This document shows positions 90 to 52,896 of a stretch of DNA of 64,000 nucleotides, in pieces. A program made the position numbers and the translations under genes. The stretch's first letter is position 1. Each line of letters opens with the position of its first letter. This stretch comes from a virus: the IMG/VR virus record IMGVR_UViG_3300030099_006944, positions 123,356 to 187,355 of that record; one strand, written 5' to 3'. Under the pieces are notes generated by a model. The model was given only the letters and a program-made list of their open reading frames with translations. It searched no databases and was not told where the DNA came from.

Positions 90-123
90 ATTGTGAACTA
101 ATTAAATGTAAAGAGGATTATAT

Positions 124-4625: not shown

Positions 4626-7600
4626 ATGTCAACTAACGAAGAAATAGTAAAAAAACTACTTGAGCTTTATTTTCAAAATAAGGAAGGGGAAAACACAAAC
4701 ACTTACATTGATCGCATTAAAAACCTTAAACCTGCTGATAGAACCGCCTTGTTTGACCGTGGGGTTGGCGTGATCGACCTTTCGGGATTGGGGGACTCTA
4801 TCACTGAGCAAAGAAAAGCACGAGCAGAAATGCTTAGTCAATACTGGGAGAGTAGAGGGATTGAAGCCAGCGGTTGGCCATGGGATGTCGTGGTAAGTTT
4901 TATTCAAGACGGCGATCATGCACTGTATCCGAAGGGCTCAGGAAAGAAAGGTCAATTTACACAAGAGGAGTACGTTGCAGCAGCCCGGGCTGGTGTGTTA
5001 AAGGCATCGGAACAAGCAAGCAAGGATGGGGGCGCTCTGGATGTTTGGAACTTTTATGAGGTATGGAGAACCGAAGGAGGGGGTGGAAAGCAATCGGCTC
5101 ACTTTCAGAGAAAAGTCAACAAGAAGAGTTTAGCTGGGCAGACCACATCTACAACCACTACTGGTTCGGGTCCAAAAACGAAACTGTGGTCGTTATATCA
5201 CAGAATTGTTGAAGGGGGTATACACTTCTTTAAGGATGAAACAAGTGATGGTGAGCCACTGTGGGGTTTCGATGGAAGAGATATGAGTGCCCGGACGGAT
5301 ATTAGTGGTATAAGAAGCAAGAACTGGGCCCCGGGGAAGCCCGGTCCATTCTTTCTGGCTCTCACAGAGGATAATGCAATCGGAGAGAAAGGTGATAATT
5401 TTTTGGGTTTCCAAACTGGAGAAAATCTATCGAGTATCGCTAGCATTGATGGAGATGGGATTGAAGATAGCAAAGTCGAGGAAGGTGATTATTCTGACTA
5501 TTCTCAATGCTTGATTTTGGCTTCTTATTTAAAATCTCCAAAGATGGAGATTAATTATTTCGCAAAACAAGGATTACTAGCAAAACAAGGTGACCCAACA
5601 GCTTATTGGAGCGACAGGATTATACCTCTGTGGCTTGAAGATCCAGATAAGTTTATAAATTACAGTATTATGCCTCCAACTTATTCTGATTTTTTCAAGA
5701 ACTTGCAAATCGATCCTCAAACGGGTAACTTCTTGAAGATCAATGAAGAATATAGACCCGCTATTGATCCAATGGCGTATTCCAAGATGGTGTTAAAGAC
5801 GTCTTTGAAATATATATATACTGAATACAATTCTGATAATACTCCAACAATCATCGATGTCCCCATAAGAAACAACTCGGTTGAAACATTACAGGGTGAT
5901 TATTTTAAATTAAGAATTGCGAATGATATTTCTTCACGGGTCGTTAGTGATGATGATGCCATGGTTATTAAAGAGTCCGGAGGCATATTCAATTCACTAC
6001 AAGACATAAAAGACTTCATAAGTAGCGTGAAAAACGCAGCTAACACCGGGGAAAACAATAATTTTTATCACCTAGAAAACGTGGATATTAAATTTGATGG
6101 TACCAATCCATCTACTGCTAGGAAAGATGTGCAGGTCTCGTTGAAATTTATTTGCGATTCTTTTCACACTTTTAGTACATATGAGATTTCCGACAAGGGA
6201 CTGCTGGGTAAAGATTTCAAAGGTAATTCAAAGAAAATTACATTAGCAGATCTGGTTTCTTTACCTACTACTGGTAAAACAATCAACGATTCTGAGCCCG
6301 GAGGGTTTATTAAAAATCAGTTTAGTCCCAACTACAATCGACTACAATTATCGATAAGCCACTTCAACTTAGTACAAGAGAGAGTATCAAAAGAAGAATC
6401 AACAACAGAGAGTGATGATAACTTTGGAGGTAGAGGAGTAGGTACACAAGGTCATCGCGGTACCACAGGTAACAACAGTGCTGGTGGGGACACAATAAGT
6501 TTCAAAAAAGTTAGCGAAAATGAATGGATTAAAACATCAAAAGCTGACGGTAACGATATGATATTGGATCTTTCCGTTATTGATCACACGATTGAAAGAG
6601 ATCCGGCAACCGGTTTTATCACTTTTACTGTAAATTATCGCGGTTATTTTGATTCTATGTTAACCACTCCTGCTTGTGATGCTTTAGCTGACAAACGAAT
6701 CAATGACAGGCGCAGCCAAAGAGATAAGCTATTAAGAAATGCAGCCAGAATAGGTTGCACCAGAAACGAAATAAAAGAAATAATGGACAAAAACCAAGCA
6801 ACCGCTCAGTTGGAAAAAGATCGCGCCATGGCATCTATAATTGAGCGATTGGCAACAAGAGGGAGACTATATGTTACAGATATCCCAACTAGTCATTTAA
6901 AGAGTTTTGTGCAGACAGGTCACCTAAACAAAACTGCTAGGGAATCTGTTGATATCATCATTGATATAGAATCACCCGTCGGTGGTGGTACTAGTATTGC
7001 GCAACTCCTAGGAGAAAGCGATATCGATCGAGCCGAATCAGAAGACATAGAACTTCAAGATAGAAACTGGGGTGGTGATGTTGCGGCCGGATTTGATGCT
7101 GCTTGGGACAAATATGTCACGGGCGAAGGCTCAGAAGGCTTTTCCGATGCGTATGGCGCTAGTGATATATATCAAAAATACAGAGACGGTCGTTCTTGGA
7201 GGACATGGTCTTTTTTCTTAGGTGATCTTTTGGATGTTATTTCGGATAGTATATACGAGGAAGGAACCAGCGTACACCACAAGCAATACAAAGCAATGAA
7301 TTTGAAATTTATGGCTTCTACATTTGCGATACCGGATTTTTTTAGCGAAGTCGGCGAGGATCATGATGATATATTGAGAAACATTCTCTCGGTACCTATT
7401 TCTTTGGATTTTTTCAAAAAATGGTTTAATGAAAACGTAACCAATAAAGATCTATTGTTTTACCCTATGGGCACCATGATTAAAGATTTAGTCGAACGCG
7501 TGATATCAGGTCTTCTATATGAAACATGTTTATCAAGCCCAACCGATACTCCCCCTATATTTAGAATTGGGTATTTTACGGATTGTAGAAAACGATATAA

Positions 7601-9071
7601 TCTAATGAGAACTTATAAGTTCCAAAGACGATCTACCGCAGTGGGTCAGTGGTCTCCATGGCTAGATTGGAAAACCGCTAGTCTTTTTAGTTACAACAGA
7701 GACAAAGCCTTGTTTCATATGGATTCAAGTGTGGAGACCAAAGACAGAAAAAACTATTGTGTTATATATTGTATGAAATCAATGGTTATGAATCGAAAAC
7801 TGACTCAGAACATTTACAACGATGAAGACAGTTTTGAGAACTTTGTACCAGTCATCTGTTATGGTACAAACAACATCGGGGCTAATTATCTATCAGATGT
7901 AAAATTTAGTAAAACTAGTACACCCGGTCTTCGCGAGGCCAGATATTTTGGTAGTGCCAATGGTGGACTAAGTCTTTTGTCAAATGTTTATGATTTGTCT
8001 TTTAGTTTTAGTAAAATGGCTGCTAATACATTCTTTTATCCGGGCTCTGTTTTTGATTTTCGGCTGCTGGATAAGGGGATGGGTAGTCCTCATGACAAAA
8101 AGTCACTAGCATATCATATGGGCTTCGGAGGGTATCATATGGTCAAGTCAGTAAATTATAATTTAAATGTACATGCCAGTGACTATCAAATAACTGTCGA
8201 TTCTAAATTTATTGGCACCAAACAACCAGAAGATCCTTGGAGAAACTTTCCAAACGCCTCTGCTATTGAAGCCGCCGTCGATGCAAAATGCGATGATCTT
8301 ATAATAAAATCAGAAAGGGTATTTGCACTTGAACAAGAACAAAGGAATGCAGATGAGGCATACAATTCAATAAGTTCTGATGGTGTTATCACCATCGAGG
8401 ATATAGAAGACGATGCAGAAAGAGCCACACTGGCTAGTGAAGAACAAGAACTGTTGGATAACCAAATTGAAGCTTGGTGGGCCGAGAACAAGGATTCGGT
8501 CATGGAAGCGGTTAAGGCGAGGATAGCCAGCAACAAGGAAACTGCTGTAAAGAACGCTTGGGCCAGGAAGGAAAACCTTCGTTGGGGTCTAGACGAGTAT
8601 TCCGGAAAGGATCTGTTAAATTCGACGGATAAACCTTTTGCAAAGGATAACGGCCTAGATGATGACCCTGATTACTACTACTACACAGGGTATACCGATG
8701 CTGGTATAGAGGAGTGGTTAACTACCGGGACCTTAGGTGACCCGGACGAAACCGGAACGAGAGCTTTTAATCCTCCGATAACGGACTTAACTTCAAATGA
8801 TCCAAACAGCATTGGACAATACCTAATAAAATCAACCGCGATACTTTATTGTCATGATGATCATTATGTGCCTTTTGTGAGAGTTCAATACCGAAATGGT
8901 TTTAAATATTACACCTACAAGCCAACTGGTGCTAGCACCGCGGCTCAGGTTGCGTACAACATGAGTAGATACGGAGCTGATGCATCTAAGTATACGAGCG
9001 AAATCATAGAGTTCAAGCCATACATTGACAGTACCACTTACCGCTGGTCAACTGAGTTCGATTATGGATAA
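4626..9071 (+). CDS. Large virion protein, baseplate hub-like
   Basis: 1481 aa after LysM gene; C-terminal FYPGSVF..GFGGYHMVKSV pattern typical of hub proteins. Confidence 0.5.
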   Translation: MSTNEEIVKKLLELYFQNKEGENTNTYIDRIKNLKPADRTALFDRGVGVIDLSGLGDSITEQRKARAEMLSQYWESRGIEASGWPWDVVVSFIQDGDHALYPKGSGKKGQFTQEEYVAAARAGVLKASEQASKDGGALDVWNFYEVWRTEGGGGKQSAHFQRKVNKKSLAGQTTSTTTTGSGPKTKLWSLYHRIVEGGIHFFKDETSDGEPLWGFDGRDMSARTDISGIRSKNWAPGKPGPFFLALTEDNAIGEKGDNFLGFQTGENLSSIASIDGDGIEDSKVEEGDYSDYSQCLILASYLKSPKMEINYFAKQGLLAKQGDPTAYWSDRIIPLWLEDPDKFINYSIMPPTYSDFFKNLQIDPQTGNFLKINEEYRPAIDPMAYSKMVLKTSLKYIYTEYNSDNTPTIIDVPIRNNSVETLQGDYFKLRIANDISSRVVSDDDAMVIKESGGIFNSLQDIKDFISSVKNAANTGENNNFYHLENVDIKFDGTNPSTARKDVQVSLKFICDSFHTFSTYEISDKGLLGKDFKGNSKKITLADLVSLPTTGKTINDSEPGGFIKNQFSPNYNRLQLSISHFNLVQERVSKEESTTESDDNFGGRGVGTQGHRGTTGNNSAGGDTISFKKVSENEWIKTSKADGNDMILDLSVIDHTIERDPATGFITFTVNYRGYFDSMLTTPACDALADKRINDRRSQRDKLLRNAARIGCTRNEIKEIMDKNQATAQLEKDRAMASIIERLATRGRLYVTDIPTSHLKSFVQTGHLNKTARESVDIIIDIESPVGGGTSIAQLLGESDIDRAESEDIELQDRNWGGDVAAGFDAAWDKYVTGEGSEGFSDAYGASDIYQKYRDGRSWRTWSFFLGDLLDVISDSIYEEGTSVHHKQYKAMNLKFMASTFAIPDFFSEVGEDHDDILRNILSVPISLDFFKKWFNENVTNKDLLFYPMGTMIKDLVERVISGLLYETCLSSPTDTPPIFRIGYFTDCRKRYNLMRTYKFQRRSTAVGQWSPWLDWKTASLFSYNRDKALFHMDSSVETKDRKNYCVIYCMKSMVMNRKLTQNIYNDEDSFENFVPVICYGTNNIGANYLSDVKFSKTSTPGLREARYFGSANGGLSLLSNVYDLSFSFSKMAANTFFYPGSVFDFRLLDKGMGSPHDKKSLAYHMGFGGYHMVKSVNYNLNVHASDYQITVDSKFIGTKQPEDPWRNFPNASAIEAAVDAKCDDLIIKSERVFALEQEQRNADEAYNSISSDGVITIEDIEDDAERATLASEEQELLDNQIEAWWAENKDSVMEAVKARIASNKETAVKNAWARKENLRWGLDEYSGKDLLNSTDKPFAKDNGLDDDPDYYYYTGYTDAGIEEWLTTGTLGDPDETGTRAFNPPITDLTSNDPNSIGQYLIKSTAILYCHDDHYVPFVRVQYRNGFKYYTYKPTGASTAAQVAYNMSRYGADASKYTSEIIEFKPYIDSTTYRWSTEFDYG

Positions 9072-9082
9072 GGAGAAAAATT

Positions 9083-10321
9083 GTGTTTAAATCCCAAAAT
9101 GAAATCACATCTACTAAACGAAAGATGCAACAAACAGCACGATGGAAATTGTATTCTCAAAAACCCTCGGTTGCTACAAAAGATCTAAACCTCATCGAAT
9201 ATCAATATTACGGATTAATAGATACAGAAAATTATTCAGTAGTTCCAGATGAAATAATGATGAGAGAAATAAAATCTCATGCACCAGAATCTCGTAATTT
9301 GGTTTTTAACTTCGTAGCAGACGCCTTTGAGGCTCTACAAAATCATTTATCAAAAGCAGTTCTTCGAGGCCAAATAGATCAGGAAGGTCCGTTTGGCAAC
9401 TTAAAAGCCTTCAAAGCATATACACCCCCTAAAAACAGATACGAAAAACATATCTCAAATATATTATACAAATTGAATACCACACAAATTCCAAAAGTAA
9501 CCGGCATTAATAATATAACATCTTATAATGACTATGTCAATTGTTTTTTTGATATAATTAACAAAAGCGAAAAGGATAGTGCAATAACACTAAGCAAGTT
9601 TAATAAATCATACTATTCCAGTATTTTAGACACCGGGCTGGCTATCAGTTACCATGATGTGCCGATGAATGATAAAAAACAAAAGTTCAATAAAATTTTA
9701 ACCAAATCTAGATTTAACTATTTCAGAGATATATGTAAAAACTTTGGGTTTTCTACGGTCTTTGATAACCCAAACATATTAGTTTTTGACGTTGCCAGTC
9801 CAGCAGCAAAGAAATATTTGGAAGCATATAGTATTTTTAATATACCATCTATATTTGCAAATTACTATATCAAGACTTATATATATGATATAGAATATAT
9901 TAATAATTATATTAATTTATATTATAATAAATATGTTAGCATGTATCCTTTAACTATAGAAACAGAAGTACACTGTAATAAAACATTTCAAAAAAGAATT
10001 ACTAGACAAAAGATAGATCTATCATACAAGATACCAATAGATATCATGATAGAAAAATATGTCATGATTCGCAACAGAGAAGAAGGCTCCCCATTCAGCG
10101 AAGGAAAAACAAAAAGGATTGTAAAAAAGGCAATTTATTTTCAAAAATCATTTGACAAAACCAAAGCACTAAGTTATATTAGTAGAGAGTTCAAAGATCA
10201 GGTATGGAACAAAAATTTTGGATATCATGATCGCCTTGAAAAAGAGCGTCAAAATAATTCCTTTGAGTCTGCCGCATTTGAACCAGATACAACACCCTCA
10301 TCAGGAGGGTCAGGATACTAG
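9083..10321 (+). CDS. Hypothetical protein (412 aa)
   Basis: Long ORF, GTG start with AAGGAG SD. Confidence 0.6.
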   Translation: MFKSQNEITSTKRKMQQTARWKLYSQKPSVATKDLNLIEYQYYGLIDTENYSVVPDEIMMREIKSHAPESRNLVFNFVADAFEALQNHLSKAVLRGQIDQEGPFGNLKAFKAYTPPKNRYEKHISNILYKLNTTQIPKVTGINNITSYNDYVNCFFDIINKSEKDSAITLSKFNKSYYSSILDTGLAISYHDVPMNDKKQKFNKILTKSRFNYFRDICKNFGFSTVFDNPNILVFDVASPAAKKYLEAYSIFNIPSIFANYYIKTYIYDIEYINNYINLYYNKYVSMYPLTIETEVHCNKTFQKRITRQKIDLSYKIPIDIMIEKYVMIRNREEGSPFSEGKTKRIVKKAIYFQKSFDKTKALSYISREFKDQVWNKNFGYHDRLEKERQNNSFESAAFEPDTTPSSGGSGY

Positions 10322-12948: not shown

Positions 12949-13197
12949 ATGAGCATTACACAACAATTTCCAGTATATACTGGCACATTCACCACACAAA
13001 AAGGTGAAAAACGTACGATGAACTTTATCAAAGTTTCAGATCTTCCGACATCCTTCACTAGTGTTTCTAGTCGTGCACGAAAATTGCAACCGGGTTTTGA
13101 AACAGTCTATGATGTAGATAAAAGTCAGTATAGAACTTTCAATTATAACTCATTGATTGGGTCTGTACAGATGTCACATCGTACAATTACAATTTAA
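12949..13197 (+). CDS. WYL_2/Sm-like SH3-barrel small protein
   Basis: GTFTTQKGEKRTM...VYDVDKSQYRTFNYNSL resembles phage WYL_2 pattern. Confidence 0.6.
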   Translation: MSITQQFPVYTGTFTTQKGEKRTMNFIKVSDLPTSFTSVSSRARKLQPGFETVYDVDKSQYRTFNYNSLIGSVQMSHRTITI

Positions 13198-20894: not shown

Positions 20895-21714
20895 GAAACA
20901 ACTAAAAGAAATGATCAAACAGGTTATACTTGAAAACAGAAAGAAATCTGTTCTCTTGGAGACCCCTCAATTACATGAAGCAACTTTTGCAAAAGCAGCA
21001 GATTATATAGACAACAAGAAACTACCATTCTTTATTGTGTCTGCTTTTCGTGGAGAACGCGGAACAAAATACAGTAGAAAAAACATATCAGCCGCTGGTG
21101 ATGTTAAAGATTTCTTAAAATCTAAGGGATTGTCATATACCATAGTGGATGGTGGCTATACTGAGAAAAAGAGAGACAAAATAACGAAAGAACCACTTAA
21201 AAACCCTGAAACAGGTGATCCGGTTTACAGTGTTGAGGAAGAAGAGAGTTATTTGGTGTTTGGGGATGTACCTCATTACGGAGACACATCAGCAGCAGTT
21301 ACCGATGTACAAGAACTTTTTGAGATTGCCAAAGAAGCCTGTCTTATTGATCCTGAGAATCCCCAAGAAACTTTCAGTTTCGGATATCCAGTCGATATAA
21401 TAGAACCGGGTTCAAAAGAACCTGTTCGCGAAATGCGCATAGCTTTATATGAAAACGATGCTCCGAGTTATGCACGGGAACATATGTTTACCGAATGGGG
21501 TGGTCCTTGGAATTCTTTCGCAAAGATGATGAGTGATGTTGGAGCTTACACTAAGATCAGAGGCACAAAAGGTGCTTTCGCTGAAGAAAAACTTGAAGAA
21601 GCTAGGAACATGAAAGTCAACAGTGTCATGGATGGATACAAAAAACAACATTATGTTGATTACTGGACAAAAATGAAGGCCCGATGGGATCACGAAAACA
21701 AAAAGAGGTCTTAA
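20887..21714 (+). CDS. Hypothetical, possible virion-packaged protein
   Basis: 275 aa from ATG 20887; N-terminal KQLKEMIKQVILE motif. Confidence 0.55.
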   Translation: MNKKQLKEMIKQVILENRKKSVLLETPQLHEATFAKAADYIDNKKLPFFIVSAFRGERGTKYSRKNISAAGDVKDFLKSKGLSYTIVDGGYTEKKRDKITKEPLKNPETGDPVYSVEEEESYLVFGDVPHYGDTSAAVTDVQELFEIAKEACLIDPENPQETFSFGYPVDIIEPGSKEPVREMRIALYENDAPSYAREHMFTEWGGPWNSFAKMMSDVGAYTKIRGTKGAFAEEKLEEARNMKVNSVMDGYKKQHYVDYWTKMKARWDHENKKRS

Positions 21715-25434: not shown

Positions 25435-25463
25435 TTGACAAATGATACTAATTAGGTTATCTT
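25435..25463 (+). promoter_or_regulatory. Sigma70-type promoter
   Basis: TTGACA-17-TATCTT; spacer contains ACTAATTA. Confidence 0.65.
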
Positions 25464-47987: not shown

Positions 47988-48019
47988 GACTAATTAGGCA
48001 GTACGGAGGATCATGAAAC

Positions 48020-51633: not shown

Positions 51634-51884
51634 TGCCCTTCTACTCTCTTGGGGACCTACTACCCTACTACCCTACTCCCCCCTTCCTCGAAATTGATCA
51701 CATAATCATAGCGTTGTGGGATCGACACTTAGAGCTTGAATTAGCTTCTCCCTTCGATAAGGTACGCACTGAACAACACTTGGAAGTCACTGCTGCTGTC
51801 ATTGAGTTTTGGGAAGAAAAACTAGAAGAGATTAATAACTATGAAGTGCAGCAAAGGCGATCTGATCGCGATAAGAACGATTGA
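51633..51884 (+). CDS. Hypothetical protein
   Basis: TAATG coupling, 83 aa. Confidence 0.5.
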   Translation: MPFYSLGDLLPYYPTPPFLEIDHIIIALWDRHLELELASPFDKVRTEQHLEVTAAVIEFWEEKLEEINNYEVQQRRSDRDKND

Positions 51885-52155
51885 AGACCGTAGGGTTTCT
51901 GCTGTTGTGGTGTCCTTATACAACCGCGGACAGTTCCTGTATTGTTATATCTTGGAAACTGACACGTATCGCTTGGTTTATGAAGGAGAGGTTGAGTTTG
52001 TGATCACAAATGATTTCGGAACAGACATGAAAATGGATCATGATATATATAATTTAGACTATTCCTTCTATGAAGCATGCTCGGAGCTATTCGCTTACTC
52101 TCCTTTTTACGGATCTTTGCTTGACGAGGAAGATCTTAGTGAAGAAGACGAATAG
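51841..52155 (+). CDS. Small SH3-like protein with acidic tail
   Basis: SKGDLI...AVVV. Confidence 0.55.
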   Translation: MKCSKGDLIAIRTIEDRRVSAVVVSLYNRGQFLYCYILETDTYRLVYEGEVEFVITNDFGTDMKMDHDIYNLDYSFYEACSELFAYSPFYGSLLDEEDLSEEDE

Positions 52156-52517
52156 TGTCAAAAAAATGTCAAATGTTCGTCAAATGTCAAGTGTCAAAAA
52201 GTTGTCAAATTTCTCGATTTGTCCCATAGTTCGGGCTTTGTAGAGATCTCTTGACATTTTTTTGACAAAAAACTTTACATAACTATACACTTCGCTGTAA
52301 AAAAACTTTACATAACTCCAAAAAACTTAACATAACTCGTAAAAAACTTTACATAACTATGGAGTTGCTGTAAAAATAAAATCACGGAAAACTCCCATGA
52401 TATGGTAATATAACACGTTTCCACACATTTGTCAAACATTTTCTTGACATTCTCTTGACAAAAAACTTTACATAACTATACCAATATGTAAAGGAAATGC
52501 AAAAACTTTACATAACT
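52156..52517. repeat. Non-coding repeat cluster (iteron-like 17-mers and TGTCAA/TTGACA repeats)
   Basis: AAAAACTT(T/A)ACATAACT at 52268, 52301, 52321, 52342, 52461, 52501; TGTCAA/TTGACA pairs at 11-bp period. Confidence 0.9.
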
Positions 52518-52556
52518 ATACACATGCGCGATACCTTTTATTACCACATGCGAGGC

Positions 52557-52620
52557 GGTCAAAAAATGTCCGAAAAAGGAACAGAAAAGATTTGACAACT
52601 GAACCACAACGGGATACAAT
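52557..52620 (+). promoter_or_regulatory. Early-type promoter P0 with displaced palindrome
   Basis: GGTC-N7-GTCC 52557-52571; TTGACA-17-TACAAT. Confidence 0.8.
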
Positions 52621-52650
52621 ATAGTATAACCCTAAAATCAGGAGGACAAA

Positions 52651-52896
52651 ATGATAGAAGGATTATTGTACAGTTGCCGCTGGCGAACGAACCAGTGGAA
52701 CTATGATAACAACTCATGGGATCGTGGTTGGGATATGCTTATATTTATAGGAGTAGAGACAATCAATCGTGATGATGGAGTTGTGATAAATAACTATCGT
52801 TTCCACGATATAATCAATAACAAAAGCATCCTGATGGACAAAGGTCTTATCAGGCATTGCAAAGAAATCAAAGGAGATAGCCATGAGTGCGATTAA
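52651..52896 (+). CDS. Hypothetical protein
   Basis: GGAGG SD, 81 aa. Confidence 0.65.
   Translation: MIEGLLYSCRWRTNQWNYDNNSWDRGWDMLIFIGVETINRDDGVVINNYRFHDIINNKSILMDKGLIRHCKEIKGDSHECD

Follow-up and report, generated by a model that had tools for sequence, protein, structure and literature searches.

Co-oriented arrays of a conserved 21-nt site at the borders of the early gene block in a clade of uncultured marine T4-type phages

The window analyzed here, a stretch of 64,000 nucleotides, constitutes the final 64 kb of a 187,355-bp IMG/VR virus record (window position = genome position - 123,355) that represents an uncultured, 187-kb marine phage of the T4 type. Its large terminase is of the T4 gp17 type (E 2.6e-42 to 3ezk), and the genome also encodes a DnaE-type polymerase, GroEL, and ribonucleotide reductase. 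The two ends of the record share an overlap of ~42 nt inside a gene, indicating that it was assembled as a circle; two related full-length records have no end overlap, which is uninformative about ends. No isolated phage matches the genome at the DNA level, and no close cultured relative was found. Nearly all genes of the genome are on the + strand, and because they share one strand, GC skew, which the initial annotation had proposed as a check, carries no signal for an origin and is uninformative. The largest ORF-free gap on the + strand of the genome is located at positions 52244-52650 of the window, and the region 52156-52650, which we refer to as block A, is the conserved non-coding left border of the early (host-takeover) gene block. 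The claim that it contains no ORF was substantially borne out, only short mechanical ORFs crossing it, and neither an Rfam family nor a tRNA was found in the block. The protein encoded immediately upstream has no Pfam or PHROG family; its homologs (24-53% identity in tblastn searches) lie directly upstream of similarly organized arrays (type A, see below) in more than 20 contigs.

The components of block A are listed in Table 1. The composite element at 52251-52288 recurs at 52442-52481 and again at genome positions 6511-6553. The array region has a GC content of 24-27%, within the lowest 1.3% of 120-nt windows, and DNA of lower stability is found in several other regions; among 120-nt stretches, the two of lowest stability in the genome, at window positions 9826-9946 and genome positions 21293-21413, have a GC content of 12-13% and are far more AT-rich than the arrays. 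A leftward sigma-70-type promoter, P-, is embedded in the array. It consists of a perfect -35 box, TTGACA (52435-52430), a 17-nt spacer, and an extended -10 element, TGtTATATT, ending at 52407, and is followed by a terminator hairpin with a folding energy of -8.6 kcal/mol (z -3.3). The predicted product of this leftward unit is an RNA of ~30-60 nt comprising little beyond the terminator. To the right, the palindromic operator CGGWCA-N5-TGWCCG, which is found upstream of early promoters here and in relatives, precedes the first early promoter (TTGACA at 52592-52597, TACAAT at 52615-52620), the Shine-Dalgarno sequence AGGAGG (52640-52645), and the ATG codon (52651) of the first early gene. These two promoters belong to different classes. 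Early promoters, such as that at 52592-52620, combine TTGACA, a distance of 16-17 nt, a -10 element gATACAWT, and an upstream palindrome, and are confined to the early block. P- belongs to the general promoters of the genome, which have the motif TTGACAAA with a -10 element TGTTATAWT, as exemplified by positions 13007-13035 (genome 136362-136390), and occur in the rest of the genome with 30 strict matches on the + strand versus 4 on the - strand.

Table 1 Features of block A (window coordinates) and position of block B (genome coordinates)
Feature	Position	Strand	Remarks
Last gene before the block	51841-52155	+	104 aa, beta-rich, acidic tail
Six (T/C)GTCAA hexamers, spacings 11, 11, 7, 7, 11	52156-52208	+	two TGTCA-N6-TGTCA pairs
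Spacer element (~40 nt) between facing hexamer arrays	52209-52250		conserved in sub-clade (alignments)
Composite: TTGACA-N5-TTGACA, M copy 1 (17-mer 52268-52284), ATAC	52251-52288	+	repeat family
M copies 2, 3 (variant), and 4 (52301, 52321, 52342)	52301-52360	+	20-21 nt packing; AT-rich, ~25% GC
Intrinsic terminator of the leftward unit	52366-52401	-	hairpin 52401-52381, then U-run
Leftward sigma-70-type promoter P-	52407-52435	-	11/12 matches, TG present
Composite: TTGACA-N5-TTGACA, M copy 5 (52461-52477); M copy 6 (52501-52517)	52444-52517	+	
Palindromic operator of early promoters, CGGWCA-N5-TGWCCG	52556-52572		recurs
First rightward early promoter to ATG	52592-52653	+	conserved in all aligned relatives
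Block B, non-coding, ~740 nt	genome 5984-6726 (L046:1985-2727)		three M copies

The six 17-mers recorded in the initial annotation are all present, far in excess of chance expectation. Five are exact copies of AAAAACTTTACATAACT (52268, 52301, 52342, 52461, and 52501) and the sixth (52321) is a T-to-A variant, all on the + strand and separated by 33, 20, 21, 119, and 40 nt. When up to three mismatches are allowed, the window contains seven matches versus 0.79 expected, a number reached in none of 100 shuffles. The full conserved site, hereafter M, spans ~21 nt and reads cA-AAAAACTTTACATAACT-AT-(G/A), with the invariant positions CTTTACATAAC. The whole genome contains nine copies with at most one mismatch, all on the + strand and in two places only: six in block A (genome positions 175,623-175,872) and three, starting at 6534, 6579, and 6601, in block B (6,534-6,617), which is located ~18.3 kb downstream of block A, across the circular junction and outside the window.

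Relatives were identified by exact-match scans for the 17-mer in viral and metagenome contigs. Multi-copy clusters are present in seven related viral contigs, and the metagenomes contain at least 120 loci, with two or more copies of M in at least 57 contigs. A sequence logo built from 178 non-redundant instances among the matches listed (57 metagenome and 7 viral contigs) shows that conservation is limited to ~21 nt, with information near zero on both sides; in 82% of the copies in this set, ACTAT is followed by G or A. M is co-oriented with the genes in every one of the carrier contigs listed (at least about 60, all marine), and no reverse-strand copy was found in the 57 metagenome contigs among the matches listed or in five related records. 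Among the same matches, arrays consist of one to seven copies, with the tightest packing at 19-20 nt. The helical spacing suggested for the 17-mers does not extend to the clade, where the distances peak at 20, 27-30, 35, 40, and 50 nt without clean phasing. Each genome carries two to four M loci, always at the borders of the early block, and an overlap between M and the stop codon of the preceding gene occurs in two relatives. Examination of relatives, as recommended in the initial annotation, thus revealed a strongly conserved block, so that absence from relatives cannot be held against it. In Flavobacterium phage immuto and Microcystis phage Mel-JY01, the nearest cultured phages by terminase, M does not exceed the control level. 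Neither the 17-mer nor a 15-mer was found in full in the literature searched, where an 11-mer appears only in unrelated subjects, and the feature is not described in the papers or phage records searched.

The loci fall into two types. Type A, to which block A belongs, follows the conserved small gene and displays a fixed order: two to six M copies, the leftward promoter, one or two further M copies, the palindromic operator, and the first rightward early promoter. Among the matches listed, this type comprises 20 distinct loci (23 with near-duplicates), and in all 20 the leftward promoter is flanked by M arrays; in relatives, its boxes are conserved and its spacer is variable. A hairpin with a U-run directly follows the leftward promoter in most of 21 distinct relative sequences, and the stems differ in sequence between relatives while the hairpin and U-run are kept. 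In type B loci, one to three M copies are found in the spacer ahead of one to three of the last early transcription units, often followed by a short palindrome rich in GC and by the operator. The palindrome AAGGCC-NN(N)-GGCCTT is located, in many loci of this type, ~40-55 nt after the last M (for example, L104:4040-4060, L104:5306-5326, and L128:865-880) and supplies the only CCGG/GGCC sites at that point. Type A arrays, which have no strong upstream terminator, are longer than those of type B (mean of 4.6 versus 2.2 copies). By contrast, a strong terminator lies 14-19 nt ahead of the array in 15 of 46 type B cases, compared with 5% of control windows; because strong terminators precede a third of these arrays, M appears to reside in non-transcribed spacers and to act as DNA. 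In common with block A, block B has the 17-mer, pairs of the TGTCAA hexamer, and a composite of ~45 nt (two TTGACA hexamers 11 nt apart and the 17-mer). It also contains approximately eight CGTAAC/GTTACG hexamers and a G/T-rich tract, and segments of it are conserved with the relative G002.

The position of the arrays with respect to the early block emerges from two lines of evidence, namely the depletion of CCGG/GGCC sites and the location of early promoters. The genome contains a CCGG/GGCC-poor stretch from 174,573 to 6,855, with two sites inside, and the sites resume at block B. At 23 type A loci, the density of these sites drops six-fold, from 2.96 per kb to the left of the array to 0.47 per kb to the right, and in the relative G001 the depleted stretch begins slightly ahead of the type A array and stops 27 nt short of a type B copy. 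Early promoters bearing the operator first appear immediately beyond the type A array, and the last of them lie a short distance past the type B arrays. Thus, the arrays bracket the early block, an observation that shows where they are located, not what they do. In this genome, the early block ends at a strong intrinsic terminator on the + strand (L046:4070-4100, genome ~8069-8099), located after the last early unit that bears the operator.

Collectively, these observations indicate that the M blocks are very probably protein-binding cis elements marking the borders of the early block. Since M is near-invariant, asymmetric, 21 bp long, arrayed, located in non-transcribed spacers, and restricted to two blocks, we infer that it is the iteron-like binding site of one conserved sequence-specific DNA-binding protein. 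Several other identities were considered and rejected. M is not a host-type promoter in which TTTACA would represent the -35 box, given that a -10 partner is lacking and that information content drops to near zero beyond the 21 nt, nor does the composite of TTGACA, M, and TATAC qualify as a promoter, the proximal hexamer and the would-be -10 element not being kept in the sub-clade. A role as an activator site at fixed geometry is contradicted by the distance to the next -35 box, which varies continuously from 41 to 204 nt, and a role at the RNA level is weakened by the strong terminators just upstream of a third of the type B arrays. M also differs from the late motif, ACTAATTA. The latter precedes late gene starts by 12-30 nt and those of several non-early genes by 12-37 nt (for example, at window positions 97-104, 25447-25454, and 47989-47996, corresponding to genome positions 123452, 148802, and 171344), in 16 forward versus 2 reverse copies, and is a candidate late promoter diverged from the TATAAATA of T4. 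No integrase or resolvase, of the kind that an att or res recombination site would call for, was found in the genome, and no TGT/DpdA or QueC was found that could point to the border of a domain modified with 7-deazaguanine. Finally, M is neither a host chromosomal site nor part of a prophage form: bacterial genomes contain a 19-mer only in single copy, and hence M is not a recognizable host regulon site. These bacterial copies, most of which lie in a conserved protein gene of many Flavobacteriia and Saprospiraceae (L174-L220; ..DSYVKFF.. on the reverse strand) or at contig ends resembling insertion sequences, including those of one Marinisporobacter MAG, are coincidences unrelated to the phage.

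Among the four readings offered in the initial annotation, a replication origin and a border or genome end are compatible with the evidence, and a Pho box is the weakest. We rank first, tentatively, the possibility that block A is an iteron-type origin or a control region of early replication, because direct repeats are found in the largest intergenic region, the array is AT-rich, and a host-type unit is embedded in it in rigid geometry. Iteron arrays comprise at least three direct repeats of ~17-22 bp in one orientation, and six such repeats are present here and one to seven in relatives. In this scenario, a putative M-binding protein would load on the arrays beside the AT-rich stretch, opening at block A would be activated or primed by the small transcript made from the embedded promoter, and block B might have a secondary or auxiliary function, such as that of a late origin or, by analogy with oriR of phage SPP1, of a site where forks stall. 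The two origins of SPP1, ~13 kb apart, carry the same direct repeats together with an AT-rich unwinding element and are both bound by gp38, one of them being situated within a long stretch between genes; replication proceeds in one direction, and fork stalling has been proposed to occur at oriR (PMC6316719, PMC3485210). As in SPP1, the same direct repeats are found at two loci separated by more than 10 kb, transcription signals bracket the long intergenic region that contains one of these loci, and the genes are on one strand. However, no gp38-like initiator was found here and the repeats are not inside an initiator gene; furthermore, a genome can contain as many as four loci, a promoter-terminator mini-unit is embedded, and the phage is of the T4 type. 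T4 itself provides another parallel, in that conserved direct repeats adjoin an early-type promoter at oriE (PMC3016281). In both cases, direct repeats beside a host-type early promoter are kept in the syntenic regions of related T4-type phages, and their role is undefined in T4 as well. Unlike the oriE repeats, with which it shares no sequence, the site described here is 21 nt long, unevenly spaced, and present at both borders of the early block, and the phage relies on a DnaE-type polymerase.

Several observations speak against an origin. The AT-rich stretch is not the least stable DNA of the genome. The predicted leftward RNA would be A/U-rich and should be released at the terminator, which would make it a poor primer in an R-loop. 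Moreover, the co-orientation and border placement of the M loci are more regular than an origin needs. Host DnaA boxes are found in many, not all, iteron-type origins, and no match to the DnaA box TTWTNCACA is present in the 3 kb around the block. The small proteins encoded in the flanks and next to the clusters have no match to DNA-binding or Rep families, and no initiator gene was found.

The regularity of placement would be accounted for if M were an asymmetric site at which a phage regulator blocks or silences RNA polymerase in a direction-dependent manner, in the way stoperators do, a possibility that we consider real, if rather unlikely. In that case, M and the leftward unit would insulate the early block from read-through arriving from upstream non-early genes, and M would also insulate the last early units from each other. 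Among the matches listed, the arrays point in the direction of transcription in 57 of 57 contigs, at every locus type, and are always intergenic and at borders between temporal classes. Those of type A, with no strong terminator upstream, are the longer ones, and the overlap of M with the upstream stop codon in two relatives fits the same picture, as does the leftward promoter, which faces incoming transcription and ends at once in a terminator, an arrangement suited to an insulator. Stoperators of the L5 type are likewise asymmetric and intergenic and function in one orientation; they are 13-mers scattered singly throughout the genomes of temperate phages and bound by the immunity repressor (PMC9283540). 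M resembles those of mycobacteriophage L5 in its asymmetry, its location in short intergenic spaces at many loci, and an orientation locked to transcription, with no reverse copy among the matches listed, but it is 21 nt long, arrayed, restricted to two borders, and carried by a phage without signs of lysogeny or an integrase or resolvase gene. The main difficulty is that a third of the type B arrays are positioned behind a strong intrinsic terminator (-12 to -22 kcal/mol), which would render a roadblock redundant there; location within transcribed DNA holds for type A arrays but fails for this third. In addition, M copies are also found on the right-hand side of the leftward promoter, where there is nothing to block, and no regulator gene was identified.

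A further reading, which we regard as unlikely, connects the arrays to the physical structure of the virion DNA. Block A would lie at the leading DNA end, with M read by the terminase or by a protein controlling entry, and blocks A and B would border either the segment that enters first or a terminal redundancy of ~19.6 kb, for which the terminal repeat of phage T5, with its repeat regions and injection-stop signal, and phage SPO1, with its terminal redundancy, are the comparison cases. Because DNA translocation is directional, such a role would explain the strict co-orientation of M. This reading agrees with the exact coincidence, across 23 loci, of the type A array with the fall in CCGG/GGCC density (2.96 to 0.47 per kb), with the proximity of the depleted stretch (174,573-6,855) to the two groups of M copies (175,623-175,872 and 6,534-6,617), and with the end of that stretch 27 nt before an M copy in G001. 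The left terminal repeat of phage T5 contains three untranslated repeat regions that are conserved better than the surrounding genes (10.1101/866236). The likeness extends to large, untranslated, repeat-dense regions that are conserved above neighboring genes, lie several kb apart, and mark the edge of a pre-early segment avoiding restriction sites, just as blocks A and B bracket the CCGG/GGCC-poor stretch. Furthermore, six contigs (L056, L085, L096, L098, L112, and L142) end within 60 nt after an M array versus 1.5 expected. Such ends could be assembly breaks at tandem repeats, which are to be expected, or a hint of physical ends.

Other considerations weigh against fixed ends, foremost the T4 gp17-type large terminase: T4-type phages package DNA by the headful mechanism, and the packaged DNA is circularly permuted, without fixed ends. 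The two ends of the record join within a gene to form a circle, and the density border reveals only the start of the early block, with which any element in the spacer would coincide. In T5, the elements consist of inverted repeats that contain paired DnaA boxes, whereas the M copies are direct repeats and no such pairs in large inverted repeats were found here; T5, moreover, has proven fixed ends and two-step transfer, in contrast to a phage with a T4-type terminase. We consider it quite improbable that the M blocks border a first-entering or terminally repeated segment of ~19.6 kb in a phage whose head, tail, and terminase are of the T4 type. If true, this would amount to staged delivery, in the style of T5 or SPO1, of a host-takeover block free of restriction sites and marked by oriented arrays.

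The hexamers that accompany M in block A raise the question of a phosphate response. All those claimed in the initial annotation are present, namely TGTCAA at 52156, 52167, 52192, 52203, and 52430, CGTCAA at 52178, and TTGACA at 52251/52262 and 52444/52455, and a further TGTCAA, missed previously, is found at 52185; TGTCAA/TTGACA reaches 10 hexamers per 400 nt versus a genome mean of 0.35. TGTCA-N6-TGTCA pairs with an 11-bp period (52156/52167 and 52192/52203; inverted, 52251/52262 and 52444/52455; one in block B) are exclusive to blocks A and B within the 187 kb, and positions 52156-52172 form a perfect 17-nt inverted repeat with 52251-52267. The inversion TGTCAA-N8-TTGACA proposed at 52430-52449 dissolves as a unit, since 52430-52435 represents the -35 box of the conserved leftward promoter. 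The core of the proteobacterial Pho box is CTGTCAT-N4-CTGTCAT, and the suggestion that these arrays are Pho boxes through which a PhoB-type host regulator would render early transcription phosphate-responsive stands insofar as the 11-bp TGTCA direct repeats match this core, positions 52155-52172 agreeing at 14 of 18 positions with the proteobacterial consensus, which may not be that of the host. However, the hexamer arrays are conserved only in the nearest sub-clade (L077, L082, and L112), and in one relative the palindromic operator stands in their place. Unlike the sites of the PhoB regulon, they have no conserved -10 element 10-12 nt downstream in the sub-clade alignment and no phosphate genes nearby. 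Two of the six hexamers are at 7-nt offsets, and the hexamer is also the host -35 box, in which capacity one copy serves. A Pho-box function is accordingly very improbable and the weakest of the options initially put forward.

Least plausible of all, to the point of being scarcely credible, is that M is a compact promoter for an unrecognized phage RNA polymerase or sigma-like factor, since the resemblance to T7-type promoters (~20 conserved nt followed by a purine, here ACTAT and then G or A in 82% of copies, each pointing with the genes) is set against the lack of a T7-type polymerase or sigma-70 regions 2 or 4 among the genes of this genome, the packing of copies at 20 nt, the presence of an ordinary early promoter between every array and the next gene, the restriction of M to two blocks rather than to a gene class, and the dissimilarity of the early and late promoter motifs to M.

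In kind, protein-binding repeat arrays in a control region are known; what is new is the combination, in which an invariant, oriented site marks the two borders of the early block and a promoter-terminator mini-unit is embedded, and it is the function of the arrays, for which an origin ranks first, that we infer. The clade is common in marine and estuarine metagenomes and has no cultured member. M provides a sequence tag for the start of the infection program in new contigs and a defined bait for identifying the protein that binds it, as well as a direct route to testing iteron-type origins or staged entry in a T4-type phage. The promoter-terminator mini-unit, for its part, is compact and conserved, and its role in origins or insulators can be tested in any sigma-70 host.
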